The notes under the pieces were generated by a model. It saw only the letters and a list, made by a program, of their open reading frames with translations. It was not told where the DNA came from and ran no database searches. 64,000 nt of DNA from a virus (Duplodnaviria; Caudoviricetes): the IMG/VR virus record IMGVR_UViG_3300032038_000021, positions 54,901-118,900 of that record; one strand, given 5' to 3'. Shown here piece by piece: positions 1 to 13,230 of the stretch. The stretch's first letter is position 1; each line of letters opens with the position of its first letter. Position numbers and translations under genes: made by a program.

Positions 1-2
1 CT

Positions 3-641
3 CCCGATGAAGAGCAAAAGATATTCATAGATAGTATATACGATCCAGATACTATAGTGACTTTATGTGATTCTAGAGCTGGTTGCGGTAAAACTTTAAT
101 TAGTTTAGCTACAGCTAATATTATGGTTAAACGTTATGGATTATATGAAGGAATAGTATACTTAATGTCTCCTTGTGCCGATAAATTAGGTTATCTTCCG
201 GGTAATTTAGAAGAGAAAACAGCACCTTATATGAGACCTCTTATAGATGCTATGCTTACTATAGGATTGAACCCGGATACTTGTTTAAAATTAGATTCTA
301 ATATACAAGCATTAAAGAACGGTACTACTTATATAGAATTTTATACAGATACATATATGAGAGGATGTAATCTAGAAAATAAAGTAGTAATTATAGATGA
401 AGCTCAGAACTTTCCGTTTAACGAATTAAAAAAGGTGTTAACAAGAGTGAAAGATAGCTGTAAAGTTATCATAATTGGGCATCAGGGACAATGTGATTTA
501 CGAAATAAGAAAGATTCAGGATTTTCCGTATATTTAGACGCGTTTAAAGAAATAATAGACGATAAGCGTGTTAAAATATGCTATCTTAAAACTAACCATA
601 GAGGATGGTTCAGTAACTTCTGTGATAATGTAAATAGATAA
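3..641 (+). CDS. phoH: PhoH-family ATPase, 5' partial (frame is open from the window start)
   Basis: Walker A-like RAGCGKT, LGYLPG.LEEK..PY, YMRG.NL, IIDEAQN and G..Q.DL motifs typical of PhoH; the frame extends upstream of 57 (PDEEQKIFIDSI). Confidence 0.92.
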   Translation, partial: PDEEQKIFIDSIYDPDTIVTLCDSRAGCGKTLISLATANIMVKRYGLYEGIVYLMSPCADKLGYLPGNLEEKTAPYMRPLIDAMLTIGLNPDTCLKLDSNIQALKNGTTYIEFYTDTYMRGCNLENKVVIIDEAQNFPFNELKKVLTRVKDSCKVIIIGHQGQCDLRNKKDSGFSVYLDAFKEIIDDKRVKICYLKTNHRGWFSNFCDNVNR

Positions 642-646
642 ATAAC

Positions 647-673
647 GGAGATAGGGATATATTCCCTATCTCC
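647..673. terminator. Intrinsic terminator hairpin between phoH and the convergent cassette array
   Basis: GGAGATAGGGA-tatat-TCCCTATCTCC, 11-bp stem flanked by A and T tracts. Confidence 0.85.
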
Positions 674-682
674 ATATTTTTA

Positions 683-1048
683 TCAATATAAAGGTGCAAT
701 AAATATAGAATACAAATGTTCTGGGCCTGTGTGAACATTACCACAATATGTATGTATTTCTAAACTACTATTTATATATAATGTAAGATCTTGTTGATTA
801 TCGTTTCTGTTTATCATACAAATTGGATAATCAAAGGTTGTACGATATTGAGGTCTTATTACACTACTTGAATTTATACCACAAACAGTATTGTTTTGAT
901 ATGTAGCTCCAGATTTCATTTTTATAATAGAAAAGAAAATACCAAGCTTCACTAATGGGTTATAAGTGCAAAACATTTCTGTTGTATTGTCTACCAAATT
1001 GGTATTTACGGAAATAGTAATTGCTGTATGCTTCCACGACTTATCATC
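683..1048 (-). CDS. Silent tail-tip cassette C17 (start-less; DDKSWKHTAI...IFIAPLY*)
   Basis: Open frame from GATGAT at 1048, preceded by TAACCGATT; no RBS; beta-rich RBP-head-like sequence. Confidence 0.75.
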   Translation of the reverse strand, partial: DDKSWKHTAITISVNTNLVDNTTEMFCTYNPLVKLGIFFSIIKMKSGATYQNNTVCGINSSSVIRPQYRTTFDYPICMINRNDNQQDLTLYINSSLEIHTYCGNVHTGPEHLYSIFIAPLY

Positions 1049-1063
1049 AATCGGTTAAAAATT

Positions 1064-1336
1064 TTATTTAATCTGAATCCATTTACTAGTCCAATTACCA
1101 TTACCATATTTAAATCTAAAAAACAAACTAGCAGATTCATATTCTCTAATAGCTATTTGTATTGAATACGTTGATTTCAAAACAATTAATACTCCACCAG
1201 TAAAAACTGTTGGAAAATTATTTCCGGCAGTACCTACACAATACACACCAGAATCATTAATAGAATTAGCATCTATGTTATTTTTTATATCTTGTATAAA
1301 AGGTATTCTAGTTTGTCCAAACTCATCCACATCATC
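1064..1336 (-). CDS. Silent tail-tip cassette C16, pyocin-knob-like (DDVDEFGQ...WTSKWIQIK*)
   Basis: Starts at GATGAT; DAN...SGVY...NFP...LIV...QIA...FR...W..W pattern of tail fibre knob domains. Confidence 0.78.
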   Translation of the reverse strand, partial: DDVDEFGQTRIPFIQDIKNNIDANSINDSGVYCVGTAGNNFPTVFTGGVLIVLKSTYSIQIAIREYESASLFFRFKYGNGNWTSKWIQIK

Positions 1337-1363
1337 ATGCGTTATATTAATAATTATATATCA

Positions 1364-1684
1364 TTAGCTTGCCGGTGGTACAAGAGTAAAAATACAAAAA
1401 TTATACTGTTTTCCTACTGTTATTGTAGAATCATGTTTAAAAGTGCTTAACCTATAATCACTAGCCCAAGCTTTTATTAGATTACCATTTGTACTATCCC
1501 TTATTAATATTCCTTGTACCGGAAATTTAAAGTTGTTGGGTAAGTTAAATGTAATTTCGTCTGTATCTGTAGAACTTGCAATAAAAACTCCATATACAAA
1601 TCCAATATATTTAGTATAAACAATTTTAACAACGGTATTAGATCTATTTGTACTAACTGAAGCTGAATGAAAGCTATTATCATC
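1364..1684 (-). CDS. Silent tail-tip cassette C15 (DDNSFHSASV...FTLVPPAS*), absent from the ORF track
   Basis: Manual translation gives 106 sense codons from GATGAT at 1684 to TAA at 1364; FNLPNNFKFP resembles RBP head domains. Confidence 0.75.
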   Translation of the reverse strand, partial: DDNSFHSASVSTNRSNTVVKIVYTKYIGFVYGVFIASSTDTDEITFNLPNNFKFPVQGILIRDSTNGNLIKAWASDYRLSTFKHDSTITVGKQYNFCIFTLVPPAS

Positions 1685-1710
1685 AATCGTTATAAAAATA
1701 TAAATTTATT

Positions 1711-2019
1711 TTACGATGCTTTATACCAAAGACTAAGTACATTAATACTAGGAATAACTAATTGATTTGAAAAATTATAAAGAAATACACTACCAATGTA
1801 AATATCATTGGTTCTTATTGACACACCTGCACAATGAAATATTATGCCGTTATCTATATAATCACTTGGAATAACTGAAGCATGTATTGGTTTATAATTG
1901 GTTTCGGTTATTGCAGTACAAAATACATTAGCTTTAGAATTTGCCGGTACACCACTAAAGGTATTAGGTATTATTTGAGTTTTCTTTGTTTTATAAATTC
2001 TTATAAAATTTTCATCATC
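1711..2019 (-). CDS. Silent tail-tip cassette C14 (DDENFIRIYK...LWYKAS*)
   Basis: GATGATGAA junction; NYKPIHASV resembles GYKPIAIAG in the tip currently on the master gene. An ATG lies two codons upstream but has no RBS. Confidence 0.75.
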   Translation of the reverse strand, partial: DDENFIRIYKTKKTQIIPNTFSGVPANSKANVFCTAITETNYKPIHASVIPSDYIDNGIIFHCAGVSIRTNDIYIGSVFLYNFSNQLVIPSINVLSLWYKAS

Positions 2020-2036
2020 GTTCATTTTGCAAGAAA

Positions 2037-2336
2037 TTACAATTTTTTCCAACTGGACCAAGACGCAAGATCTGAAGTTCCTCTAATAGCAATTCCACCT
2101 CCTTTATACTCTAATGCTAGTTGCGTACAATGTGATCTAATAACTCTAATTACAATTAAATATATGGTTGGATAAGGTATGTTTAAAATAGTACCACCAC
2201 CAGCTGTATTAAGCCAATATATACCAGTTTCAGTTGCTTGATTTATATTTGTTATAGTAGTATAATCTCTTTTATATATTATATTATGATAATTTGCTGC
2301 TTCTTTAACTCTATTTCTAAACGAGCTATCATCATC
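2037..2336 (-). CDS. Silent tail-tip cassette C13, pyocin-knob-like (DDDSSFRNRV...WSSWKKL*), absent from the ORF track
   Basis: Manual translation gives 99 sense codons; NINQATETGIYW...NIP...LIV...QLA...IR...WSSWKKL knob pattern; no in-frame ATG. Confidence 0.78.
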   Translation of the reverse strand, partial: DDDSSFRNRVKEAANYHNIIYKRDYTTITNINQATETGIYWLNTAGGGTILNIPYPTIYLIVIRVIRSHCTQLALEYKGGGIAIRGTSDLASWSSWKKL

Positions 2337-2425
2337 TTATATTATATTATTTTTAATTTATTATAGCATACACAGTATAATAAATTTTGTAGTTGTATTA
2401 TCTTTTATCATACTGGAGGTTTATT

Positions 2426-2914
2426 ATGCTTGACGTTAAATTAACAGTTTCTGCACCGTGGTTTATTCATTATCGTAAGCTTCAGGCTATGTTCCTTGAA
2501 GATCCTCAGGTAACAGTAAAGTTTGATCAGGATAATTATGAAGTTAAGTTGTATGTAGATGATGCTGATAAGGCAGAAGCTCTTGGAAAGATTCTTAGGA
2601 ATAGTATTGATTATGGTACTATTACCCTTAAGGTTACTGTAATTCCTCCGAATTATACCGATACTAATATTAGAGATCTTTATGAAAAGGCTTTGGAAGG
2701 AAATGGAGCGGTTTCTGATTACCTTACCAATCAGGTTATTGGTAAGAATTATGTAATCTTTAAGAATGAAGTAGTTCAGTACTTTAGCGATGATCTCAGT
2801 AAGGCTAATAGTGTAACTTCTACTTTGTATGAAAATATTGCTGAAGATATATTTATTGATAGAGCTGAAATGGGTTATTCTACTGAGCTTGGAGAGAATG
2901 TGATTAGAGATTAA
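2426..2914 (+). CDS. Hypothetical phage protein (162 aa) embedded in the cassette array
   Basis: GGAGG RBS before ATG at 2426, ACA-N6-TAAA motif at 2371-2384 and a downstream terminator. Confidence 0.8.
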   Translation: MLDVKLTVSAPWFIHYRKLQAMFLEDPQVTVKFDQDNYEVKLYVDDADKAEALGKILRNSIDYGTITLKVTVIPPNYTDTNIRDLYEKALEGNGAVSDYLTNQVIGKNYVIFKNEVVQYFSDDLSKANSVTSTLYENIAEDIFIDRAEMGYSTELGENVIRD

Positions 2915-2921
2915 TAATATA

Positions 2922-2950
2922 AAATCCCAGTGAATTATTCACTGGGATTT
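2922..2950. terminator. Bidirectional intrinsic terminator
   Basis: AATCCCAGTGAA-tta-TTCACTGGGATT hairpin between convergent frames. Confidence 0.85.
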
Positions 2951-2971
2951 ATTTTTATAATTTATAATATA

Positions 2972-3256
2972 TTATGTAAAATTTATAACAGTCCAGTTGG
3001 TCCAACCACTAGATGAATGTCTCCTTCTATACATTTTTGCATTACGCATAGAGAATGCTATTTGTAGTACATCTTCACCCATTCTTATACTTAATACAGC
3101 AATAAATGATTCGGGAGCATTATTAATATTAGCACCAAAATAGTATAATCCAGAGTTAGCTGTGAGATTATTTAAATCTGTAAATCCTGCATTGCCTACA
3201 TTAGGCAATATTCCAACTGCATTTGTAAGTATTTCTGTCTTAGAATCCAGATCATC
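2972..3256 (-). CDS. Silent tail-tip cassette C12, pyocin-knob-like (DDLDSKTEIL...WTNWTVINFT*)
   Basis: GATGAT junction preceded by AACTCGATT; DLNNL..SGLY...NAP...LQIAF...MY.R...W..W pattern. Confidence 0.8.
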   Translation of the reverse strand, partial: DDLDSKTEILTNAVGILPNVGNAGFTDLNNLTANSGLYYFGANINNAPESFIAVLSIRMGEDVLQIAFSMRNAKMYRRRHSSSGWTNWTVINFT

Positions 3257-3268
3257 AATCGAGTTTTA

Positions 3269-3469
3269 TTATTTAGTCCAAATTGTATCCCACTCTGTTC
3301 CATTAAACCATCTGTACATTATATTTTTATTATTAAATACAAGCGAATATACATGACTAGTCGAATTCGAATTCAAATGCAAATTTATCCAATGTGTATC
3401 TCCTGTATTATTAGTACCAAATGCTATTTTATTAGTACGATTAAACTCGAATTTCGAGTTTAATTCATC
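3269..3469 (-). CDS. Silent tail-tip cassette C11 (DELNSKFEFN...EWDTIWTK*), absent from the ORF track
   Basis: Manual translation gives 66 sense codons from GATGAA at 3469. Confidence 0.7.
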   Translation of the reverse strand, partial: DELNSKFEFNRTNKIAFGTNNTGDTHWINLHLNSNSTSHVYSLVFNNKNIMYRWFNGTEWDTIWTK

Positions 3470-3978
3470 ATAAGGCTACAAGTATAATATTCAAAATACG
3501 CGTACATTATTTAAAGTGGTTGTTAATGCTTTTTCGGCTGAAACAAAAAGATGGATTGATACTCACCATATTTTGTCACTGTCATTTCAGTGTCGACTTT
3601 TATATCTATATAACCTGTTTTTCTTGAGTTTTAATTTATAAGATAACAAAAAGACCCATAATACATTTTATTTGGCTGATATTGTTCTCTTGCAAAAAAA
3701 CCCGAATCGTCATAAAAACCCATTACAGAATAACTATCAGCAGATGGAGTAAGATAAACTCTACCTGCTAGTCCTGGAATATATCCTGTTGGAAATTGAA
3801 AAATGCTAATATTGGGACTGGTGCTATAACTAGCTATGTTAGAACCAGTATGTAATGCAAAATGACAAATTCCAATTCTTTTGTATTTTAGACAAACTAA
3901 ATTTAAAGAAGCATTGGTATTAGTATAATTTCCATTTAAAGCTGTTGTTCCTGGTTTGTTTATACTATCATAATCATC
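3470..3978 (-). repeat. Copy 2 of the duplicated cassette unit (C10 plus trailing spacer)
   Basis: Highly similar to 5561-6080; homology starts at one junction motif and ends at the next. Confidence 0.9.
3631..3978 (-). CDS. Silent tail-tip cassette C10 (DDYDSINKPG...GSFCYLIN*), paralogue of C7, absent from the ORF track
   Basis: 115 sense codons from GATGAT at 3978; IFQFPTGYIP RBP-head-like motif. Confidence 0.8.
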   Translation of the reverse strand, partial: DDYDSINKPGTTALNGNYTNTNASLNLVCLKYKRIGICHFALHTGSNIASYSTSPNISIFQFPTGYIPGLAGRVYLTPSADSYSVMGFYDDSGFFAREQYQPNKMYYGSFCYLIN

Positions 3979-4014
3979 ATAATCTTCTGAAAATTAATTT
4001 ATTAAATATAAATA

Positions 4015-4029
4015 TAATAATATACTATA
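4015..4029 (+). promoter_or_regulatory. Putative early phage promoter motif TAATAATATACTATA
   Basis: Identical 15-mer also at 11985-11999(+), 52003-52017(-) and 61454-61468(-), each just upstream of a gene start. Confidence 0.65.
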
Positions 4030-4049
4030 TTTATAAGGAGGTAAAATAT

Positions 4050-4376
4050 ATGAATTTATCTATTGTACGTACTGTAGATGAGATGTATAACTATATAGAC
4101 ATTATCTTTAATACTGCTTTATCTAATAAAGCTGATAGAATCGTGTTTCTTAATACTTATAATAATCAGTCCAGTTTAAAAGCTAATAGATTTGTTGCAA
4201 ATTATTTGAAACAAGATACTTACGGTAATGAAACTGTAATATCTATGTATGATAATATGTTGGAGATTGATAATATTAATATACTATATAAAGCTATAAA
4301 TAAATTTAAAGAAAAATATAATAATATTCCAATAGAAGTTTGGACTGATTATAGTACCGGTAAAGTGTATTGGTAA
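4050..4376 (+). CDS. Hypothetical protein (108 aa)
   Basis: AAGGAGG RBS before ATG at 4050; the upstream extension in the ORF track overlaps cassette C10 and is unlikely. Confidence 0.75.
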   Translation: MNLSIVRTVDEMYNYIDIIFNTALSNKADRIVFLNTYNNQSSLKANRFVANYLKQDTYGNETVISMYDNMLEIDNINILYKAINKFKEKYNNIPIEVWTDYSTGKVYW

Positions 4377-4400
4377 GTTTTATAAATAGGAGAATATAAT

Positions 4401-4718
4401 ATGAGTAATAAATTAGGGGATAAAATATTAAAATTATGTAAACAAAAAGGACTAAAGCAAAGAGATTTAGCAGATAAAATAGGAGTTACTGAAGTCAGTG
4501 TGAGTAGATATATTCGTGGTACTAGAATTCCTAATGCTAATATACTAAAGAAGATGGCTGAAGTATTAGAAGTTAGTGTTGGAGAAATCTTAGGAGAGAA
4601 AGATAAAACAGAAGAAGAGAGTGAGAAATTTGATAGTGCTTATAATACTATAAAAGAAATAAAAGATAAACTTACTGTAGAAGAGAAAATGAAAATAGTA
4701 AGATTATTATTTATATAA
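4401..4718 (+). CDS. XRE/Cro-C1 family helix-turn-helix transcriptional regulator
   Basis: LGDKI..L...KGLKQRDLADKIGVTEVSVSRYIRGTRIP...LKKMAEVLEVSV HTH_3 pattern. Confidence 0.92.
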   Translation: MSNKLGDKILKLCKQKGLKQRDLADKIGVTEVSVSRYIRGTRIPNANILKKMAEVLEVSVGEILGEKDKTEEESEKFDSAYNTIKEIKDKLTVEEKMKIVRLLFI

Positions 4719-4752
4719 TGATCTTAAGTTGATTTATTGTGAATAATATAAA

Positions 4753-4779
4753 CCCGTAGAGTATTATTACTCTACGGGT
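4753..4779. terminator. Intrinsic terminator
   Basis: ACCCGTAGAGTA-tta-TTACTCTACGGGT hairpin after the XRE gene. Confidence 0.85.
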
Positions 4780-4849
4780 AAATAAATCATAATTATCTAT
4801 AATATTATTTATTTTTTAGTTCGGTTCATGATTTTTATCTGTAGAAGGA

Positions 4850-5004
4850 TTAGAGGATGATTTTAGCAAGAAGTACCACACCATGAATGGGACTCGAAAA
4901 GTCAAAAGTGCTGATATATCCTAATTCGGTGACACAATAGGCTTGGGATTCGTTATATCTAGCACTTGTCCAATACGAAAATCCATTATTTCTTAGATAA
5001 ATAT
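4850..5004 (-). pseudogene. Truncated tip-cassette remnant (…YWTSARYNESQAYCVTELGY…HGVVLLAKIIL*), C-type-lectin-like C-terminus
   Basis: Short open frame directly behind C9 with no junction motif; YWTS...A..V...G......GV resembles the end of CLec-fold domains. Confidence 0.45.
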
Positions 5005-5298
5005 TTATTGTGTTTGTCCAAATGCAATAATTTGACAATATACTGTTATTACTGTGCTATAAGAATTATGTACCTTTATCTTACAATAAGTTGATATACT
5101 CTGTAAAATAATAGTATCTATAAATTGTGGATTAATATTTGCTATAGTTGATAATGCTATATAAGGTGTCGATTTAAATTTAGCAGTAGAATAGTTTATA
5201 ATTATTTCATTATAACCATTTGCATTAACTGATTCACTTGCACCACCACTATATATTTTTGGGTTTGAATATTGTTCATTGATAACAGCATCATCATC
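5005..5298 (-). CDS. Silent tail-tip cassette C9, H-type-lectin/gp53-like (DDDAVINEQY...IIAFGQTQ*)
   Basis: GATGATGAT junction preceded by AAAAC; KIYSG...I.Y..AKFKSTPYI...IIAFG pattern. Confidence 0.75.
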   Translation of the reverse strand, partial: DDDAVINEQYSNPKIYSGGASESVNANGYNEIIINYSTAKFKSTPYIALSTIANINPQFIDTIILQSISTYCKIKVHNSYSTVITVYCQIIAFGQTQ

Positions 5299-5308
5299 GT
5301 TTTTAATT

Positions 5309-5560
5309 TTATTTATTATAGTATATAAAAGATACTTTAACACGCGTATCTGTCATTTTTTGATTATTATCTAACCTATATACATATATTTCATAATAAC
5401 CAGTATTATTATTTGTTGAGATAATACAATTTAAACCACCCCAATTATACGAATAAGCAGTTAATATATAAGAATTATACATATTAAGATTACTAATACT
5501 TATAACTCCAGTATTTGTATTCGTAACAGTAGAAGCTTTTAAAAAACCAACCAGATCATC
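5309..5560 (-). CDS. Silent tail-tip cassette C8 (DDLVGFLKAS...VSFIYYNK*), absent from the ORF track
   Basis: 83 sense codons from GATGAT at 5560. Confidence 0.72.
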   Translation of the reverse strand, partial: DDLVGFLKASTVTNTNTGVISISNLNMYNSYILTAYSYNWGGLNCIISTNNNTGYYEIYVYRLDNNQKMTDTRVKVSFIYYNK

Positions 5561-6080
5561 ATAAGGCTATGAGTATAATATTCAAATACCCGTACAGCAT
5601 TAAAGTAGTTGTTAATGCTTTTCCGACTGAAACAAAAAGATGGATTGATATCAACTCATATTTTGTCACTGTCATTTCAGTGTCGACTTTTATATCTATA
5701 TAACCTGTTTTTCTTGAGTTTTAATTTCTTTATACCTCAACAAGATAACAAAAAGACCCATAATAATCATTATTTGGTTTATATTGTTCTCTTGCATAAA
5801 AATTCGCATTATCAAACCAACCCATTACAGAATAACTATCAGTAGATGGAGCAAGATAAACTCTACCTGCTAATGTTGGAATATATCCTGTTGGAAAACT
5901 AAAAATGCTAATATTGGGACTGGTGCTATAACTAGCTATGTTAGAACCAGTATGTAACTTAAAATGACAGATTCCAATTCTTTTGTATTTCACACAAACT
6001 AAATTTAAAGAAGCATTGGTATTAGTATATTTTCCATTTAAAGCTGTTGTTCCTGGTTTGTCTATACTATTATAATCATC
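5561..6080 (-). repeat. Copy 1 of the duplicated cassette unit (C7 plus trailing spacer)
   Basis: Highly similar to 3470-3978, including the ~165 bp spacer ending GCCTTAT|GATGA. Confidence 0.9.
5730..6080 (-). CDS. Silent tail-tip cassette C7 (DDYNSIDKPG...GSFCYLVEV*)
   Basis: The ORF 5730..5993 frame extends without stops to GATGATGAT at 6083-6075. Confidence 0.8.
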   Translation of the reverse strand, partial: DDYNSIDKPGTTALNGKYTNTNASLNLVCVKYKRIGICHFKLHTGSNIASYSTSPNISIFSFPTGYIPTLAGRVYLAPSTDSYSVMGWFDNANFYAREQYKPNNDYYGSFCYLVEV

Positions 6081-6142
6081 ATCTGTCTTTTTAGGCTAAT
6101 ACATATCCTTATACATATAGATAATCCTCTGTATAAAAATAT

Positions 6143-6167
6143 TCCAGTAGGATTCTTCCTACTGGGA
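6143..6167. terminator. Hairpin of the terminator family, upstream of the nrd operon
   Basis: TCCAGTAGGA-ttct-TCCTACTGGGA. Confidence 0.65.
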
Positions 6168-6270
6168 TTTAATAAATTTAAGACTATTATATTACTTTAT
6201 TTTGTATAGATTTTATCTTCATGATACTATATGATCGATTTGGTCGATTATAATAATGTTTGATTTCCAA

Positions 6271-6284
6271 AACACTTGTATAAT
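6271..6284 (+). promoter_or_regulatory. Putative phage RNAP promoter AACA-N6-TAAT
   Basis: AACACTTGTATAAT upstream of the nrdH-like gene; matches the AR9-type late consensus AACA-N6-TA and also contains a TATAAT box. Confidence 0.55.
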
Positions 6285-6342
6285 CTTCCTATATTAGTTA
6301 TATTTATATGGGATTTTATTAATTATTTTCTAGGAGGTATCC

Positions 6343-6561
6343 ATGAATAACGTTATTCTCTATTCAAGCAATTGTCCCCGTTGTGTTATACTAGAAACTA
6401 AATTGAAACAGAAGAATATTAATTTTTCTATTAAGAATTCTGAAGATGATTTAAATAAATTATTTGAAGAAGGCTTTAGAGAAATGCCTGTATTAGAAGT
6501 AGATAATACTAAATATACTTTTGGTGAAGCTGTAAAATTGGTAAATAATTATTCGGAGTAA
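6343..6561 (+). CDS. Glutaredoxin/NrdH-like redoxin
   Basis: LYSSNCPRC (CxxC), GFREMPVLEV; RBS AGGAGG; directly upstream of nrdD. Confidence 0.88.
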   Translation: MNNVILYSSNCPRCVILETKLKQKNINFSIKNSEDDLNKLFEEGFREMPVLEVDNTKYTFGEAVKLVNNYSE

Positions 6562-6592
6562 AATTTATACAGAATAGGAGTTTGTAATAGTA

Positions 6593-8623
6593 ATGGGAAT
6601 TTTAAATATTCAAGTACATCAGGAAGATGATTTTATATATCAATTTAATAATCTTAAACAGAAGTATGGATCAGATTTCCAGTATCTTAACGGATTCCAC
6701 CAATCACAATTAGACTTCTCTCAATTTATTGCTGGCTTCGTGGACAAATCTACCGTAGCCGATACTACTATAGACGGAAATGCAAATGCTAAACATAAAG
6801 ATATTTGTTCTCTTAGAGGAGAGAAAGGAAAATCTGAAGATAAGCTATTTGCTTTTAATAAAATCTATTATGAATTAAAAAAGAAGTACGGAAAACGCAC
6901 AGCGGATCAATGGTTGGAAGACGAATGGACCGGACAATTCTATATGCACGACGCACCTAGTTCTAGTTATGCAAGTTATTGCTTTGCATACGATTTATCA
7001 CGTCTTGCAAGAGAAGGTTTATTCTTCTTAGACGACTATCATAATGAACCTCCAAGGCATCTCACTACATTTATAGATGATACGATAGAATTTATATCGT
7101 TTTTCTCTAACAGAACATCTGGTGCTTGCGGACTTCCTAATATATTAGTTTGGGCAATGTACTTCTGGAAGAAAGATATAGAGGATGACTATTGTTTGAG
7201 GAATCCTGATTACTATCTTAGACAAGCTTATCAGAAGTTTATATTTAGAATTAATCAGCCGTTCTTGAGAGTAGACCAATCTGCATTTGTAAATGTATCT
7301 ATATTCGATAGATATTATTATGAATCTCTGTTTGGTGGATTAGAGTTCCCTGATGGTAGTTTTGCAATAGATTATGTGGACGAATTCATTAGACAACAGA
7401 AGATATTTATGGAAGTTGTTTCTGAGATTCGTAGTGTAAATATGTTTACATTCCCTGTATTAACTTATTCTTTACTTAAGAGAGACGATTTAACTAAATT
7501 GGAAATGTTAGATATGGTAAAAACAAAGGATTATCATATCTTTAAAGATAATGAATTTGCTAGATGGTGCTCTGATCATAATTGTCAGTGGTATGATAGT
7601 AATTTCTTTATGTCTACAGATGTAACCACACTGAGCAATTGTTGTAGATTATTATCTGATACTACTAAGCTTAGTGGATTTATTAATTCTATTGGAGGTA
7701 CAGCTCTTTCTATCGGATCTGTAAAAGTATCTACAATCAATCTTATGAGAATTGCTTTAGAGTCTGATAAGGATGAAGAGAAGTATTTGAAGATTCTTAG
7801 AGATAAGACTATATTGGATTGTAAAGTTCTTGACAGACAACGTTGGATTATAAAGAGAAATATACAGAAAGGATTACTCCCCAATTTCTGTGAAGGTGGT
7901 GTAGAGTTAGATAAATGTTATAGTTCGATAGGTATATTAGGAATTTTTGAAGCTGTAGAATACTTTGGTTATACTACAATGGATGAATTTGGCAATATAT
8001 CATATACAGAAGAAGGTATAAGTTTTGCTAAGAGAATATTCGATGTATTAAATGAAGTTAAAGATACTTTCTATGATATATATGGAGATGAAACGTGGTA
8101 TAAAGGTAGAGATAATATCTTAGAGAGATACAGTTTCAATATAGAATCTGTGCCTGCTGAGAGAGCTGCTGTAATTCTTTGCCAGAAAGATAATCTTCTT
8201 TTTGAAAGAGATACGGATAAATTCATTTACTCGAATCAGTGGGTTCCGCTCACGGCACGGGCTACTATAGATGAAAAGCTTAAGCTTAGTTCTATACTAG
8301 ACAAGGAATGTTCAGGTGGGTCCATTCTGCACTGTAACCTTGAATCTCCGTTCCCTAACACAGATGTGGGTTGGGATATGCTTAACAAGATTGCTATATC
8401 GGATGTAATATATTTTGCTTTTAATGCTATTATAAATGAATGCAAAGATCACCATGCATTTATAGGAACCGATTATTGTCCTATATGTGGAAAACCAGTA
8501 ATGGATACATGGTCTCGCGTTGTGGGGTTCTATGAGCCTCGTAGAGCATATAGTGCTGATAGAAAGAGAGAACGTGATGCCAGAAAATGGTATCATTATG
8601 CTAATGAGAGATTAGAATTATGA
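6593..8623 (+). CDS. nrdD: Anaerobic (class III) ribonucleoside-triphosphate reductase, no ATP cone
   Basis: YMHD, YCFAY, FTFPVLT, SNCCRL finger loop, ESVPAE, SGGSI.H, C-terminal C..H...CP.CG and SRVVGF glycyl-radical loop. Confidence 0.96.
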   Translation: MGILNIQVHQEDDFIYQFNNLKQKYGSDFQYLNGFHQSQLDFSQFIAGFVDKSTVADTTIDGNANAKHKDICSLRGEKGKSEDKLFAFNKIYYELKKKYGKRTADQWLEDEWTGQFYMHDAPSSSYASYCFAYDLSRLAREGLFFLDDYHNEPPRHLTTFIDDTIEFISFFSNRTSGACGLPNILVWAMYFWKKDIEDDYCLRNPDYYLRQAYQKFIFRINQPFLRVDQSAFVNVSIFDRYYYESLFGGLEFPDGSFAIDYVDEFIRQQKIFMEVVSEIRSVNMFTFPVLTYSLLKRDDLTKLEMLDMVKTKDYHIFKDNEFARWCSDHNCQWYDSNFFMSTDVTTLSNCCRLLSDTTKLSGFINSIGGTALSIGSVKVSTINLMRIALESDKDEEKYLKILRDKTILDCKVLDRQRWIIKRNIQKGLLPNFCEGGVELDKCYSSIGILGIFEAVEYFGYTTMDEFGNISYTEEGISFAKRIFDVLNEVKDTFYDIYGDETWYKGRDNILERYSFNIESVPAERAAVILCQKDNLLFERDTDKFIYSNQWVPLTARATIDEKLKLSSILDKECSGGSILHCNLESPFPNTDVGWDMLNKIAISDVIYFAFNAIINECKDHHAFIGTDYCPICGKPVMDTWSRVVGFYEPRRAYSADRKRERDARKWYHYANERLEL

Positions 8624-9096
8624 TTATTAAAGGTATTATAGATGAAGATTTTGTAAACTATAAGAAGTGTAGTACTACTATTATGATGCCTAATTGTTCT
8701 TTTAAGTGTGAAAAAGAATGTGGTAAATTGGTATGTCAGAATTCTAAGTTAGCAAAGTCTTCTAATATAGATATTTCTAATGATAGATTAATAAATAGAT
8801 ATAAGAATAATATTTATAGTGATAGTATAGTATTTCAAGGATTAGAACCTTTTGATAGTTGGGAAGATTTAATCTTATTAATTTCCGATTTTAGAAAAGC
8901 TGGTATAGAAGATGATATAGTAATCTATACTGGTTATAAAGAAGATGAGATAGAAGATAAAGTAGAACTGTTAAAAGTGTTTAATAATATTATAATTAAA
9001 TACGGTAGATATATTCCTGATAGTGAGAAAGTATATGACGAATTATTAGGAGTAGAATTAGCCAGTAAGAATCAATATGCTAAGAGAATAAGTTAA
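8620..9096 (+). CDS. nrdG: Anaerobic RNR activating protein (radical SAM)
   Basis: CSFKCEKEC...CQN cysteine cluster, GLEPF, IYTGY, KYGRYI, LASKNQ; 4-bp overlap with nrdD. Confidence 0.92.
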   Translation: MIIKGIIDEDFVNYKKCSTTIMMPNCSFKCEKECGKLVCQNSKLAKSSNIDISNDRLINRYKNNIYSDSIVFQGLEPFDSWEDLILLISDFRKAGIEDDIVIYTGYKEDEIEDKVELLKVFNNIIIKYGRYIPDSEKVYDELLGVELASKNQYAKRIS

Positions 9097-9102
9097 AATA
9101 AT

Positions 9103-9133
9103 ATCCCCGTAGGAGTAAATTCCTACGGGGATA
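9103..9133. terminator. Bidirectional intrinsic terminator
   Basis: ATCCCCGTAGGA-gtaaat-TCCTACGGGGAT followed by a T tract. Confidence 0.88.
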
Positions 9134-9141
9134 TTTTTATA

Positions 9142-9477
9142 TTATCTAAAAACATGACCTATAACTGCATAAGAATTGACACTTGATGTTGAACCACGGT
9201 ATCTTTTACAATAACATCTATAAGTACCACTATTTAAAATTCCTGTCACAGCTTCTATTGATAGAGTACTATTAGATTCACCATATAATTTGGATCTGAC
9301 ACTACCATCTAGATTGTCACAAATAGCTAATACTTCCGGACGACCCGAATTCCAATTAGTACTATATCGTATAAGTGCAACATTCGATAATTCAAATTCT
9401 ATTCCAATATATTCCATATTTTCACTTTGTGATATATATGTAGTAGTAGCCAAAGTTAAAAATATAATCCTATCATT
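9142..9477 (-). CDS. Silent tail-tip cassette C6 with variant junction AATGAT (NDRIIFLTLA...VIGHVFR*)
   Basis: Preceded by AAACCGATT as in C17 and C2; frame continuous with ORF 9142..9453. Confidence 0.72.
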   Translation of the reverse strand, partial: NDRIIFLTLATTTYISQSENMEYIGIEFELSNVALIRYSTNWNSGRPEVLAICDNLDGSVRSKLYGESNSTLSIEAVTGILNSGTYRCYCKRYRGSTSSVNSYAVIGHVFR

Positions 9478-9490
9478 AATCGGTTTAAAA

Positions 9491-9787
9491 TTATATTTCT
9501 CTTACAGCCTGCCAAGTGCCTGCAGCTTTTATTTGAAAAAGTATTTTATTATTACTATATCCAAAAACTAAACCAGAAGCATAATTACTATCTATAAATT
9601 TTTGTGCTAAACAAATATACCATCCAGATCTAAATATTTCACCTATATGTAATTTACCATCGTTATCTAAACTATCTATAACTGTAGGTATATGATCTTT
9701 AATTTGACCAGAGGTATAATTTAAAGAAAATGAATTACCAATATAATTAGTTATTTTATTTAATTTATTAATAGGACCATTTTCATC
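9491..9787 (-). CDS. Silent tail-tip cassette C5 (DENGPINKLN...GTWQAVREI*), absent from the ORF track
   Basis: 98 sense codons from GATGAA at 9787 with no in-frame ATG; YASGLVFGY...K..GTW tip-like end. Confidence 0.75.
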   Translation of the reverse strand, partial: DENGPINKLNKITNYIGNSFSLNYTSGQIKDHIPTVIDSLDNDGKLHIGEIFRSGWYICLAQKFIDSNYASGLVFGYSNNKILFQIKAAGTWQAVREI

Positions 9788-9814
9788 ATGCTTGTTTGTA
9801 AATATAATTTTATA

Positions 9815-10186
9815 TTATAATCTTTTTAATGTAATTGTATATATGTAAGCATATACATTTATATTTGTACCAGAATTTTGAGATGCATAACATTCTATGA
9901 TTTCACCAACATCATAACGTTCTACTGTTATAAGTTGTTGATACATTACTTTTCCTTTTATTGAATTTATAATATTTGTTTGATCCCTTGCACCTCCTAC
10001 TGATCTTACAGCAATAAGTCTAGTTCCAGTATCATTCGCCGCCACCCAGTTTGCACCTCTTATTACTAAATATTGTGCATGTGTGTTCACCGTGACAGTT
10101 GCAACAAGTATTCTTGAATCATTTCCGGATATAGATGTTGCATTTGGAAGTGTACCATCAAAAGTTCCACGATATGAATTTTCATC
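9815..10186 (-). CDS. Silent tail-tip cassette C4, C1q/TNF-like beta sandwich (DENSYRGTFD...TITLKRL*)
   Basis: GATGAA junction only 3 nt after the C3 stop; VGEIIECYASQNSG resembles C1q-like fibre tips. Confidence 0.75.
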   Translation of the reverse strand, partial: DENSYRGTFDGTLPNATSISGNDSRILVATVTVNTHAQYLVIRGANWVAANDTGTRLIAVRSVGGARDQTNIINSIKGKVMYQQLITVERYDVGEIIECYASQNSGTNINVYAYIYTITLKRL

Positions 10187-10189
10187 ATA

Positions 10190-10480
10190 TCAAACAGTTA
10201 TAAAAGCTATTTTATACCATGTATTCCAAGTTTTATTACTATCATCTCCGTCGCGTTTATATAAATTAGAACTTATCATTGTGATAATCATCTGTACAAT
10301 TTGGTTTGAAAGATATGATCTTAATATTAATAAAAAACAATAAGTACAATCTGTAGGTGTGTTTTGTATATGATCACAGATATAATAAATACCTGTAGAT
10401 ATATAATTGTTAGCATTTTCACTAGCTACAGGTATTCTATTGATAAGACCAGGTGTATTTTTCAATTGTGCAGCTTCATC
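10190..10480 (-). CDS. Silent tail-tip cassette C3, pyocin-knob-like (DEAAQLKNTP...WNTWYKIAFITV*)
   Basis: GATGAA junction; NANNY..TGIYY...NTP...LLIL...IVQM...LYKR...WNTW pattern. Confidence 0.8.
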   Translation of the reverse strand, partial: DEAAQLKNTPGLINRIPVASENANNYISTGIYYICDHIQNTPTDCTYCFLLILRSYLSNQIVQMIITMISSNLYKRDGDDSNKTWNTWYKIAFITV

Positions 10481-10527
10481 ATAAAATATTATAGTAATTA
10501 TATTAAATTGATTTATAATTAGGTATA

Positions 10528-10815
10528 TTACAGTATATGAGCAGTAAATGTTCCAGTTTGTTCATATGCGTACGAACTATTTAACTTTAGTATATCACCT
10601 TTTCGTAATCCCACTATGTCATTTATCGTAGAATCTGCATTCGAAGTATATCCAGTACAGTTAAAATCTTTTCCATTGATTAAGTAATTTATATAAGGCC
10701 TGACCCCATTTGTAGTACGATTTGACATCCTTACAAAACAATCATATGGTGCTGTATAAGGCGAAGTTTTTAACTGTGTTGAAATATCTATATAACCATG
10801 CAATATATCTTCATC
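10528..10815 (-). CDS. Silent tail-tip cassette C2 (DEDILHGYID...FTAHIL*)
   Basis: TAACCGATC|GATGAA junction; YTAPYDCFV...GLRKGDIL fibre-tip-like pattern. Confidence 0.75.
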   Translation of the reverse strand, partial: DEDILHGYIDISTQLKTSPYTAPYDCFVRMSNRTTNGVRPYINYLINGKDFNCTGYTSNADSTINDIVGLRKGDILKLNSSYAYEQTGTFTAHIL

Positions 10816-10824
10816 GATCGGTTA

Positions 10825-11064
10825 TTATTTATAATAGATAAACGTATAATTATGGCTAGTCGTTATAGGATATAAAACATATATGGATATAATAGATTGC
10901 TGCACACTCCATATACAACAATCTCGATGTTCAGTTACGTAAAATAAATTAAATAAAGAACCTACAATATTCTCATCTCTTATTTGGTATTTATCACCAA
11001 CATTTAATGCTTTATCAAATGTACCATATTTATAATATGCTGTTACTTTATTAAACTTTTCATC
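10825..11064 (-). CDS. Silent tail-tip cassette C1 (DEKFNKVTAY...TFIYYK*), absent from the ORF track
   Basis: 79 sense codons from GATGAA at 11064, 20 nt after the master gene stop. Confidence 0.72.
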   Translation of the reverse strand, partial: DEKFNKVTAYYKYGTFDKALNVGDKYQIRDENIVGSLFNLFYVTEHRDCCIWSVQQSIISIYVLYPITTSHNYTFIYYK

Positions 11065-11084
11065 AAAACACTTTTATCAATATA

Positions 11085-11726
11085 TCAATTACTCCGCCTA
11101 TGTAAAACAGTAACTCTAACAATATTATTTGTAATTTTAGTACCATTACTAGTTTTCCATCCAAGATCAATAAAATAAGAATTACTACTATCAATGCTTA
11201 TAAATAAATTAAATAAAAATATTTTACTATCTGTTTTTGCGTGCCATCCTGCAATGGCAATAGGTTTATAACCACTAATCAAATCCATAGTTACAATCTC
11301 TTCATGTTCTATAAAAGTACCTACAGATTTAATATCTATGGTATTATAAATTAAATAGTTGGATTTCAAATCATCATTTAGTGTAGCAATTGCCTCAGCG
11401 TTCAGAGAGCAAGCACGACGAAGAGATCCGATAATAGATCCGAGCGTCTTACCGGTCGTAACGTTAGCAAGAGCTGCAGTAGCCGTACTAGAAGTATCAT
11501 CGTTAATACCACCGGTGATCTCAGTAGTAGCAATATCTCCGCCCATTGCATAAGGAAGAGAACCATAAGCAGTAACACCATCGCCCATCTTCATCTTACA
11601 AGTACCGGTTCCAACACCAGTATCGGGCAATTCTATAAACATTTCGCCTGCTGCAAGCACTGTAGAGGACTTAGTTCCGTTCATTGTAGAAGCTTTACCA
11701 CGTCTGGGCTTAAAAATCTTAGACAT
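11085..11726 (-). CDS. Master tail-tip/receptor-binding protein: constant Mtd-N/hyaluronidase-like N-terminus, NDD junction and variable C-terminal tip
   Basis: AGGAGG RBS; KPRRG...VLAAGE...DTG...KMKMGDGVTAY.SLPY is the Mtd N-terminal pattern; short helical linker ends in AAT GAT GAT (11378-11370); composition becomes more AT-rich after the junction. Confidence 0.85.
   Translation of the reverse strand: MSKIFKPRRGKASTMNGTKSSTVLAAGEMFIELPDTGVGTGTCKMKMGDGVTAYGSLPYAMGGDIATTEITGGINDDTSSTATAALANVTTGKTLGSIIGSLRRACSLNAEAIATLNDDLKSNYLIYNTIDIKSVGTFIEHEEIVTMDLISGYKPIAIAGWHAKTDSKIFLFNLFISIDSSNSYFIDLGWKTSNGTKITNNIVRVTVLHRRSN
11370..11378 (-). other. Putative cassette-exchange (expression) site AATGATGAT in the master gene
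   Basis: The same GATGAW, in the same reading frame, opens 16 of the 17 downstream cassettes (the 17th is AATGAT). Confidence 0.75.
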
Positions 11727-11849
11727 ATTTAAATTCCTCCTTTTAGGAAAATTAAACTCCTCATCTCATACTTATTAGTAGCTCTCTGGATAGTATTATA
11801 GTAATCATAAAGATAAGGAGCGATACTAAGGTATCACTACTAATAAGCA

Positions 11850-11863
11850 ATTATGTAAATGTT
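11850..11863 (-). promoter_or_regulatory. Putative late promoter AACA-N6-TAAT for the master tip gene
   Basis: AACATTTACATAAT on the minus strand, similar to TACATTTAGATAAT upstream of 13135. Confidence 0.55.
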
Positions 11864-11879
11864 CCTCCGGTAAATAGCG

Positions 11880-11975
11880 AAAAACCCATCATTTGAAACT
11901 ATAGTAACTACTTTTGGCAGTTACTGAGCGTTTTCATATATTAAAAAATATATCATATTTAAATGATGGGTTTTT
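11880..11975. repeat. 15-bp perfect inverted repeat (AAAAACCCATCATTT / AAATGATGGGTTTTT) around a 66-bp spacer with an inner hairpin
   Basis: Arms at 11880-11894 and 11961-11975; inner AGTAACT...AGTTACT stem. Confidence 0.8.
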
Positions 11976-12043
11976 ATAAATTTTTAATAATATACTATAA
12001 AAGTGTAAATGTGGTTACTAAACAAAATAAAGGAGTGAATATT

Positions 12044-12223
12044 ATGAAACTTGAAGACATCATAAGAACCTATGGAAAAAGTACCGATTATTATGATATG
12101 TATACTGGATATACATATCACTTGCCTCAGATGGGAGAACCGGATGAGGAAGGTAATCAGAAAGTTCCGGTGTCAGAAGATGGAACCATTATCGGAACTG
12201 TCACTGTGAATATGACAACCTAA
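12044..12223 (+). CDS. Small hypothetical protein (59 aa)
   Basis: AAGGAG RBS, ATG at 12044, early-type motif at 11985-11999 and terminator at 12231. Confidence 0.7.
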   Translation: MKLEDIIRTYGKSTDYYDMYTGYTYHLPQMGEPDEEGNQKVPVSEDGTIIGTVTVNMTT

Positions 12224-12230
12224 ATAAAAT

Positions 12231-12257
12231 ACCCAGAGTCTATTATAGACTCTGGGT
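12231..12257. terminator. Bidirectional intrinsic terminator
   Basis: ACCCAGAGTCTA-tta-TAGACTCTGGGT. Confidence 0.85.
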
Positions 12258-12265
12258 TGATAGTT

Positions 12266-13135
12266 TTATTTTTTATTCTTATTATCAGTAGATTCTTCTA
12301 CAACTTCTTCATCTTCAGATCCAAATTCGCCATCGTCTTCTGGATCTTCTTCCTCTGCTTCTTCTACAGTATCATCTTCAGTAATTTCTTCAACAGGTTC
12401 TATCTTAACCTCTTTTTCTACATTTTCTTTTTTATCAAGAGAAGATATCGGTTTAAGAATATCTTGTAATCCTGCTGTAGATACTACAGTCTCAGCATCA
12501 CCACTATCTATTTCGGTATTATTATCATCGTCCTCTGTAGTAGGTTCTGTTGGTTCTGTGCTTGGTTCAACAGGTTCTACCGGTTCAGCAGTATCATCGT
12601 CTGTGGAGGGAGTAGTATCACCATATTGATCGAACGGGTCTGTTTCATAATTAGTATTATCAATTACATAATCTTCCATATTTGATAATGACATTGGAAC
12701 ATCGCCATCTTCTGTACCAAAATCGTAAGTAGTATCATCTTCCATAATAGTACCGGCAGTTATATAAGGGAGACTATTCCATCTACTACTACCATTTCCA
12801 ATCTTAATAGCATTCTTTGTAATATCGTAAGCTATTTCTCTTTCTGCAAGTATAGGATTAGTGTTAGCCCAAGCACTAGCGGTAGCAGATCTAACCTGAA
12901 TAAGAGCAGTAGCGTTTATACCACCACCATCTATAGCAGATGCTGCAGTTCCGTCGAATGCATATACTAAATTATTCCAAGGGCTTACTCCATCTCCAAC
13001 CTTAAACTTACATAATCCTGTTCCTATTCCACTATCAGGAAATTGTATTGCTAGTTCTCCCTCTGCAAGGACTGGGTTATATGAAGCCCATTCGTATTCA
13101 GTTCCCCGTCTAGGTCTTATTTTAGCATAAGCCAT
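12266..13135 (-). CDS. Tail-fibre adaptor with two tandem Mtd-N/hyaluronidase-like domains and an acidic tail
   Basis: IRPRRGT..EW...NPVLAEGE...KFKVGDGVSPWNNL and IQVRSAT..W...NPILAERE...KIGNG..RWNSLPY; IDGG between them; YDFGTED and EFGSED in the tail. Confidence 0.8.
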   Translation of the reverse strand: MAYAKIRPRRGTEYEWASYNPVLAEGELAIQFPDSGIGTGLCKFKVGDGVSPWNNLVYAFDGTAASAIDGGGINATALIQVRSATASAWANTNPILAEREIAYDITKNAIKIGNGSSRWNSLPYITAGTIMEDDTTYDFGTEDGDVPMSLSNMEDYVIDNTNYETDPFDQYGDTTPSTDDDTAEPVEPVEPSTEPTEPTTEDDDNNTEIDSGDAETVVSTAGLQDILKPISSLDKKENVEKEVKIEPVEEITEDDTVEEAEEEDPEDDGEFGSEDEEVVEESTDNKNKK

Positions 13136-13230
13136 AACAACTTATCTCCTTTCGGAACTATTTTCTATACTATAATTATCTAAATGTAATTAACAGGTCA
13201 AATTTATTGCAATTCAACCTGTTAATTATA

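Follow-up and report, generated by a model that had tools for sequence, protein, structure and literature searches.

Receptor-binding tips set the host range of phages, and the known routes of tip variation are invertible segments with few alternatives, diversity-generating retroelements (DGRs) and slow modular exchange between genomes. In the inversion switches and shufflons (Mu Gin, P1 Cin, p15B Min, R64 Rci and prophage Rin), DNA recombination joins a constant N-terminus to one of 2-7 alternative C-termini by means of inverted 19-34-bp sites and an adjacent invertase and thereby alters receptor specificity, while T-even phages swap adhesins by recombination at the His-box or glycine-rich motifs of gp37/gp38. 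The present analysis concerns a fibre locus in a 64,000-nucleotide stretch of DNA from a tailed phage (the window; bases 54901-118900 of the 118.9-kb IMG/VR virus record IMGVR_UViG_3300032038_000021, 48% complete according to CheckV), in which one expressed gene, termed here the master gene, shares a short in-frame core with about 30 silent tip cassettes. Comparison with related strains shows repeated recombination at this 7-8-nt core, between master and cassette as well as between silent cassettes, with deletions or insertions and dispersed copies of single cassettes as its products.

The closest described systems each resemble the locus in part. As in an integron, promoterless cassettes of one orientation form an array with a single expression site at its head, and single cassettes have moved as units (copies and an indel, core to core). 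Nevertheless, neither the record nor the precomputed Pfam matches for a further 28 kb or so of this phage revealed a tyrosine recombinase of the IntI type, and no attC-like imperfect palindrome is present (7-8 nt are conserved and trailers are mostly 4-48 nt); furthermore, the cassettes lack starts and are expressed as in-frame C-terminal fusions, and they lie in several clusters of a lytic-type phage genome. The term "integron-like" used in the preliminary description of this DNA thus holds for the orientation, the missing promoters and the mobility of the cassettes and, with neither integrase nor attC-like structure, is an analogy only. The constant N-terminus with DNA-recombined alternative C-termini recalls the inversion switches, but here about 30 sites are direct repeats, no recombinase was found adjacent to them and the events are deletions, insertions and copies rather than inversions. 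One expression locus served by many 5'-truncated silent cassettes is also the design of Neisseria pilE/pilS, Borrelia vlsE/vls and the Mycoplasma loci. Gene conversion at pilE/pilS and vlsE is driven by homology and retains the donor, whereas the sites here share 7-8 nt, the intervening DNA was lost in the clearest event (strain L024, below) and the carrier is a virus; donor-retaining copying as in pilE/pilS may, however, explain two pairs of silent paralogues (6080/3978 and 9787/g51276).

The DGR of Bordetella phage BPP-1 (Mtd) likewise targets the tip of an Mtd_N-like fibre, and a reverse transcriptase (RT) gene stands beside the fibre gene in one relative of this phage (L016). In the DNA analysed here, as the preliminary description had stated for the window, there is neither an RT nor a pair of template and variable repeats (TR/VR), and whole domains are exchanged instead of being point-mutated. 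A DGR is not supported, given the lack of an RT in the record and of adenine-biased substitution between paralogues (17/20/16 substitutions in the first pair, 15/12/9 in the second, without adenine asymmetry). Short conserved coding motifs serve as crossover points for receptor-binding modules in T-even phages too, although exchange there takes place between co-infecting genomes with complete genes, and no T-even genome is known to hold a store of start-less cassettes. In V(D)J and class-switch recombination, too, a constant segment is joined to one of many downstream segments on the same strand and the DNA between them is lost, as it is in L024, but machinery and organisms are unrelated and the analogy is one of logic only. 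Literature searches for such cassette libraries in phages returned inversion shufflons and DGRs only. The locus fails the defining features of each known system: IntI and attC are missing, as are inverted sites, an invertase, an RT and TR/VR, and the clearest event shows neither extended homology nor donor retention. We class it with the expression-site/silent-cassette switching of surface adhesins and see a real possibility that its recombination chemistry is new.

The master gene and the core of its silent cassettes

The master gene (11085-11726, minus strand) encodes 213 residues and has an AGGAGG ribosome-binding site (RBS) nine bases 5' of its ATG, in keeping with the ordinary genes of this phage, which use ATG starts and Shine-Dalgarno (SD) sites. 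Its conserved N-terminus, the constant part (11376-11726, residues 1-117), contains an Mtd_N-like beta region and closes in a helix at L-N-D-[D/E]; in the predicted structure, beta strands are followed by a helix at residues 95-121, which would place the junction at the helix end. Within the codons AAT GAT GAT (11378-11370), the junction core T-GATGAT (11370-11376) comprises the T of Asn117 and the codons of Asp118-Asp119, and it is here that similarity to the related contigs L002-L005, L017 and L024 stops. The remainder, tip0 (11085-11375, residues 118-213 and the stop), is the tip expressed at present. The N-terminus has 94 database homologues, and 30 of these, when aligned, have about 117 N-terminal residues in common up to L-N-D-[D/E] and are unrelated beyond that point.

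On the strand of the master gene, the window holds 17 stop-free frames of 66-123 codons, each opening with GAT-GAT or GAT-GAA (AAT-GAT in the frame starting at 9477); they are named here after their start positions. Of the 17 starts, 12 lie 0-9 codons past the upstream in-frame stop, while 18-27 codons are open before those of 10480, 5298 and 2019. Of the 23 GATGAW matches on the minus strand of window 1-11100, 21 coincide with the start of one of the 16 cassettes of the GATGAW type. An in-frame GATGAW occurs within the first 12 codons in 19 of the 39 minus-strand frames of 60-199 codons of the 16-kb library region, in 5 of 362 frames by the same criterion elsewhere in the genome (binomial P ~2e-25), and in a mean of 0.07 frames over 200 shuffles. 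Information content at the cassette starts is limited to T-GATGA-W (7-8 nt).

The library extends beyond the window. Nine further cassettes lie to its left in the record (six just left and three about 47-50 kb left), and all 26 record cores are on the minus strand, i.e., that of the master gene, the plus-strand matches being chance occurrences inside ordinary genes. A further four start-less GATGAW cassettes (L028:11848, 15818, 16103 and 16404, plus strand; the longer ENA contig k141_726733 of this same phage) lie beyond the left end of the record. In total, about 30 cassettes in at least five clusters are spread over about 80 kb, all on the strand of the master gene. Every one of them is still open, and decayed copies were seen neither in the window nor in the record or the longer ENA contig. 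Among the L028 cassettes, one trailer resembles trailers of the related loci L014 and L015, and several tips open with D-E-A-E-Q, as do the homologue P0007 and cassette 10480.

Translation signals are missing from the cassettes. An SD-like tetramer (GGAG, GAGG or AGGA) was found in the 17 nt before the core in 0 of 26 cassettes, compared with 54 of 80 ordinary ATG open reading frames (ORFs), and at the first in-frame start in 2 of 23 cassettes. Two window frames (1684 and 9787), and three in the record, contain no ATG, GTG or TTG, and in seven further window frames the first in-frame start lies more than 25 codons in; an in-frame start close to the core is present in 2019 (ATG two codons upstream), 1336, 10815 and 10480. 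A start at the ATG within GATGA was ruled out, as that ATG is in frame +1, which closes after 2-59 codons. Alternative genetic codes (table 4, TAG=Q, TAA=Q) left the short frames unmerged. The preliminary description is therefore borne out in the existence and openings of all 17 frames, in the T that it saw nearly always before the core (25 of the 26 record cassettes, with the last GATGAW of each GAT run taken as the core), in the direct orientation of all sites and in the absence of an evident RBS, and in-frame cores exceed the shuffled controls that it had named.

Exchange at the core between strains

The comparative evidence was drawn from metagenome contigs, which are taken as DNA assemblies. 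In the contig L024 (JGI Ga0326514), the constant part is 100% identical up to the core, and the sequence is then 99.2% identical from cassette 10186 (9815-10186, minus strand, 123 codons) through cassettes 9787 and 9477 and the nrdDG genes. It joins ...CTAAATGATGA directly to 10186, which is silent in the window, with the join lying within a shared ATGATGA, and it lacks the 1.18 kb between the two cores, i.e., tip0 together with cassettes 11064, 10815 and 10480. L024 also lacks cassette 6080 (5730-6083, minus strand, 116 codons, opening with three GAT codons) and its trailer from core to core, with a join inside GATGATGA, such that its allele of cassette 5560 (5309-5560, minus strand, 83 codons; alleles 92.7% identical) is attached at the core to sequence found upstream of 6080 here. 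Since a 7-nt repeat is far below any assembly k-mer, reads must span these joins.

Besides L024, six related contigs lose their similarity to this genome at or within 4 nt of the core. In L017 (Ga0326513), identity is 99.9% as far as the core, beyond which a third tip follows, and L002-L005, from a JGI sample series, are 87-94% identical upstream, with similarity lost at or within 4 nt of the core. At least three different expressed tips occur among strains that are less than 1% apart in flanking DNA. A more distant cassette is involved in the case of P0004, a protein from an ENA sample numbered near that with this phage's own 157-kb contig. Its constant part is 98% identical (in the search's best local alignment) to that of the master, and its expressed tip is 96.5% identical to cassette 3978 (3631-3978, minus strand, 115 codons), which is silent here and sits 7.4 kb downstream of the master gene, behind nine cassettes and nrdDG; a single core-to-core event would therefore be the most economical link between the two.

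Silent DNA bears the same marks. Similarity runs from core to core and not beyond in the paralogue pairs 6080/3978 and 9787/g51276, as well as between cassette 9787 (9491-9787, minus strand, 98 codons) and its homologue in L003, so that copies of single cassettes must have reached distant cores; g51276 lies 13 kb from 9787, about 3.6 kb before the first base of the window. All six clean boundaries seen in silent DNA (6/6) fall on a core. Alternative junctions in relatives, set in advance as a test of the preliminary description, were thus found for cassettes 10186 and 3978, and its interpretation of core-bounded tip exchange, with cassettes fused in frame, is supported by L024, P0004 and the core-bounded duplications and indel.

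Separately, the L024 contig begins 104 nt upstream of the core (L024:1-111), and many of the variant-tip contigs are only 0.9-3.7 kb long. Such short contigs would fit assembly-graph branching at the junction if variants co-exist in one sample, which may hint at mixed populations.

Recombination machinery, proposed mechanism and alternatives

No recombinase accompanies the cores in the DNA available. Searches of the 118.9-kb record gave nothing for tyrosine recombinases (PF00589; controls detected), nothing for RT (PF00078), no Y1 transposase and, for serine recombinases (PF00239), one sub-threshold 12-bit match that contains a stop codon and lies inside a structural gene. Among 50 left-half proteins scanned against Pfam, none matched a recombinase, and the precomputed Pfam matches covering a further 28 kb or so of this phage listed no recombinase, Y1 transposase or RT. 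The antisense genes within the libraries (a helix-turn-helix (HTH) protein with its partner, a 162-aa protein and others in L001 and L014) have no family match suggesting a recombinase. RusA and a Rad50-like gene are present, and general recombination functions therefore exist in this phage. They were located at L029:5711-6166 and L030:13870-15734 (the Rad50-like ATPase by a weak AAA_23 match), beside an uncharacterised 347-aa protein, and a GroEL-like chaperonin and a weak HNH_3 match also lie outside the record.

A programmed switch of fibre tips by recombination between cores is the explanation we favour and hold to be rather likely, because the cassettes are all open, the boundaries in silent DNA fall on cores, the cassettes are dispersed and at least three tips occur among strains diverged by less than 1%. 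The proposed mechanism would rely on one expression site, consisting of a promoter, the AGGAGG RBS and a 117-residue N-terminal anchor with its helix ending in L-N-D-[D/E], and on a store of about 30 receptor-binding tip cassettes without start codon or RBS on the same strand. As T-GATGA-W opens every cassette in the same frame, recombination of the master core with a cassette core would yield an intact fibre with a different C1q/TNF-like knob, while recombination between two silent cores would remove, add or copy whole cassettes. A terminator-like hairpin closes each cassette block and none is called from the master through the next six cassettes; a new fusion would therefore use the promoter of the master gene. 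We infer that silent cassettes are reactivated rather than merely retired, that a dedicated activity catalyses the exchange, and that receptor and host specificity change with it.

If true, this would be a fourth strategy of tip variation, in which one genome carries about 30 unrelated, ready-made and unexpressed tips exchanged at a 7-base in-frame core, with far greater breadth than the known routes, and it would explain how a large phage keeps pace with varied or changing hosts in the community of a gut or rumen. The locus suggests a recombination activity for which a very short site suffices, and its fixed anchor, exchangeable knob and defined junction provide a natural plug-in design for studies of receptor specificity.

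Several observations weigh against a programmed switch. A recombinase or RT was not found in about 147 kb, i.e., about half of the genome; the recombination-related genes seen are RusA, the Rad50-like ATPase and a weak HNH match only; and a conserved site of just 7-8 nt is very little for a classical site-specific recombinase. Silent paralogues show ratios of non-synonymous to synonymous substitution (dN/dS) of 1.0-2.8, without a codon-level purifying signal. In L014 and L015, which are 99.5-99.9% identical, divergence starts 23-106 nt upstream of a core, and some rearrangements are therefore not cleanly core-bounded. The same arrangement recurs in more than one sample for several strains, so that switching is not frequent enough to scramble assemblies, and the differences between strains can be read as activation or as push-down alike.

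Most of these points fit an archive without programmed reuse, to which we assign an appreciable though clearly lesser probability. Tips from co-infecting relatives would here be joined at L-N-D-[D/E] by general recombination through microhomology, each arrival pushing the prior tip downstream as a temporary start-less leftover, with no dedicated enzyme and no regular reactivation. The conservation of L-N-D-[D/E] and of the AATGATGAN codons in library-free relatives too speaks for such an archive, as do RusA and the Rad50-like gene in place of a site-specific recombinase, the 7-8 nt shared by the sites, dN/dS values of 1 or more and the L014/L015 difference, and an insertion of four cassettes at the front is one reading of how L024 and the window differ. 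Nevertheless, an archive of leftovers agrees poorly with about 30 cassettes that are all open and with single cassettes copied core to core to distant sites, and push-down cannot produce at least five clusters over about 80 kb. Furthermore, all six clean boundaries in silent DNA fall on cores, out of the immediate reach of selection for a functional fibre, and cassette 3978, separated from the master gene by nine cassettes and nrdDG, shares 96.5% identity with the tip that another strain expresses on a constant part very similar to that of the master. A bolder version of the switch, which we consider unlikely, would make the cores the substrates of a new recombination activity (acting on a 7-base in-frame core or through a hidden guide) that generates mixed-tip bursts in each infection. 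The constant part would be joined to many cassettes on some of the replicating genome copies, and these rearranged copies, including non-viable deletion products, would act as somatic templates; virions of one burst would carry mixed tips, the packaged germline would retain the whole library, and the process would be a viral counterpart of V(D)J-type joining.

The remaining alternatives dispense with DNA exchange or with fusion altogether. Joining at the level of RNA or translation (trans-splicing, template switching at the core or ribosome transfer), with fused DNA as a secondary product, gains from the operon-like block structure (a terminator-like hairpin at each block end and none called from the master through six cassettes) and from the short common core before each body sequence, which resembles leader-body junctions. 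It seems improbable, as the fused forms are present in metagenome assembly contigs, the distance from the master gene to a cassette reaches about 80 kb, and an Rfam search for self-splicing introns and ribozymes in window 1-13500 (E <= 1) gave a chance icd-II match alone. Group I introns have a U before the 5' site and a G at the intron end, and group II introns follow GUGYG...AY; the bases flanking the core fit neither rule. That the cassettes are independent small genes translated from unconventional starts is the least credible of the alternatives and, in our view, hardly tenable. The near-core in-frame starts of 2019, 1336, 10815 and 10480 are in its favour, but SD-like sites are lacking at the cores and nearly so at first starts, canonical starts are absent from some frames and far inside many others, the core-internal ATG is out of frame, and the homologous tips are the C-terminal parts of complete fibres.

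Tip folds, relatives and surroundings of the locus

Tip diversity is high: when expressed tips and silent cassettes are pooled, the 117 members group into 88 sequence families. The preliminary description had assigned folds to several cassettes by eye; this was put to the test for 10186 alone, the one tip folded with confidence, which turned out to be C1q/TNF-like. Its model (predicted local distance difference test score, pLDDT, 87.5) is an eight-stranded jelly roll that best matches the C-terminus of the cyanophage A4 tail protein (Z 9.8; root-mean-square deviation 2.7; 110 aligned), followed by the short tail-fibre binding domain of cyanophage A-1(L) (Z 8.8) and by C1q, TNF and PRD1 P5 (Z 8-8.5). 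Close relatives of 10186 are 76-107 aa long and truncated by the gene caller, while its more distant ones are found as the C-terminal domain of complete proteins with 200-311 aa. The tip of the master itself gave a poor-quality, beta-sandwich model of low confidence. From the models, the locus is interpreted as a fibre anchor that can take different, mutually exchangeable knobs, for which trimerisation and binding are predicted.

The N-terminal anchor is less readily placed. The master gene product has no Pfam match and weak PHROG tail matches (E = 8e-4), and a profile of its N-terminus found no meaningful relative among solved structures; PF18454 (Mtd_N) is, however, carried by its homologues P0079 and P0093. 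The record contains a single homologue of the N-terminus. Next to the master gene, a 289-aa protein on the minus strand holds two Mtd_N-like units (Mtd_N match 3.5e-17), and the N-termini of the two proteins are 45% identical over 71 aa.

Among relatives, the same library architecture is found in L001 (77% N-terminal identity) and in L014/L015 (69%). At L014:14004-14027 and L015:14092-14199, the same 22-nt trailer end precedes GATGAT and is followed by different cassettes. No library is present in L007-L013 and L016-L023, where loci of up to about 21 kb hold 0-2 chance GATGAW matches per strand, and the L-N-D-[D/E] junction and its AATGATGAN codons are kept even there. In L016 (a 269-kb ENA scaffold; 62% N-terminal identity), an RVT_1 gene (12214-13341) lies 1.4 kb downstream of the homologous fibre gene, with a second gene of 251 aa between them; a DGR rather than a cassette library probably diversifies the equivalent fibre of that lineage. 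DNA and protein searches of the phage GenBank collection, and searches of IMG/VR with a single protein and the exact junction 23-mer, returned no match, and a profile search yielded only distant relatives, all library-free.

The remaining cassettes of the window, all silent and on the minus strand, follow in order from the master gene. Three of them, 11064 (10825-11064; 79 codons, first in-frame start at codon 53), 10815 (10528-10815; 95 codons) and 10480 (10190-10480; 96 codons), are those absent from L024. Cassette 9477 (9142-9477; 111 codons) has the variant core AATGAT, and a possible homologue in L014 opens with GATGAT, judged by eye from the first residues. A bidirectional terminator-like hairpin (9100-9135) closes both the block from the master gene to 9477 and the nrdDG genes. 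Beyond 6080 and 5560 lies 5298 (5005-5298; 97 codons), and cassette 3978 is followed by 3469 (3269-3469; 66 codons), 3256 (2972-3256; 94 codons), 2336 (2037-2336; 99 codons, with its first canonical start near the last codon), 2019 (1711-2019; 102 codons), 1684 (1364-1684; 106 codons), 1336 (1064-1336; 90 codons) and 1048 (683-1048; 121 codons). The upstream ATG of 2019, in ATG AAC GAT GAT, is unique among the window cassettes and has no SD-like site. A second bidirectional terminator-like hairpin (645-675) marks the end of the last block. Trailers rarely exceed the range of 4-48 nt, but cassettes 6080 and 3978 each have a non-coding one of 170 nt (5561-5729 and 3470-3630); the two copies are about 94% identical, slightly above the cassettes themselves, with no significant fold (z = -1.7) and no Rfam match.

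The phage has a G+C content of about 30%, and related contigs of 243-296 kb indicate that it is a large phage. Upstream of the library, the minus strand encodes large structural proteins of 716, 1494, 1381 and 2544 aa, whereas the plus strand between the cassette blocks carries genes for NrdD, NrdG, a thioredoxin-like protein, the HTH protein with its partner, and PhoH. The HTH protein and its partner of 108-121 aa (4050-4718, plus strand) are retained as a pair in L001 (12027-12869, minus strand), antisense to the library; neither belongs to a family that would indicate its function, and they could be regulators of the locus or unrelated passengers. An 18-nt inverted repeat (11880-11897 and 11958-11975; 94% complementary, arms 60 nt apart) lies where the promoters of the master gene and of a small conserved gene on the plus strand diverge. 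One of its arms reads AAATGATGGG on the master strand and has the octamer AAATGATG in common with the junction; the repeat could be an operator or a relative of the recombination site.

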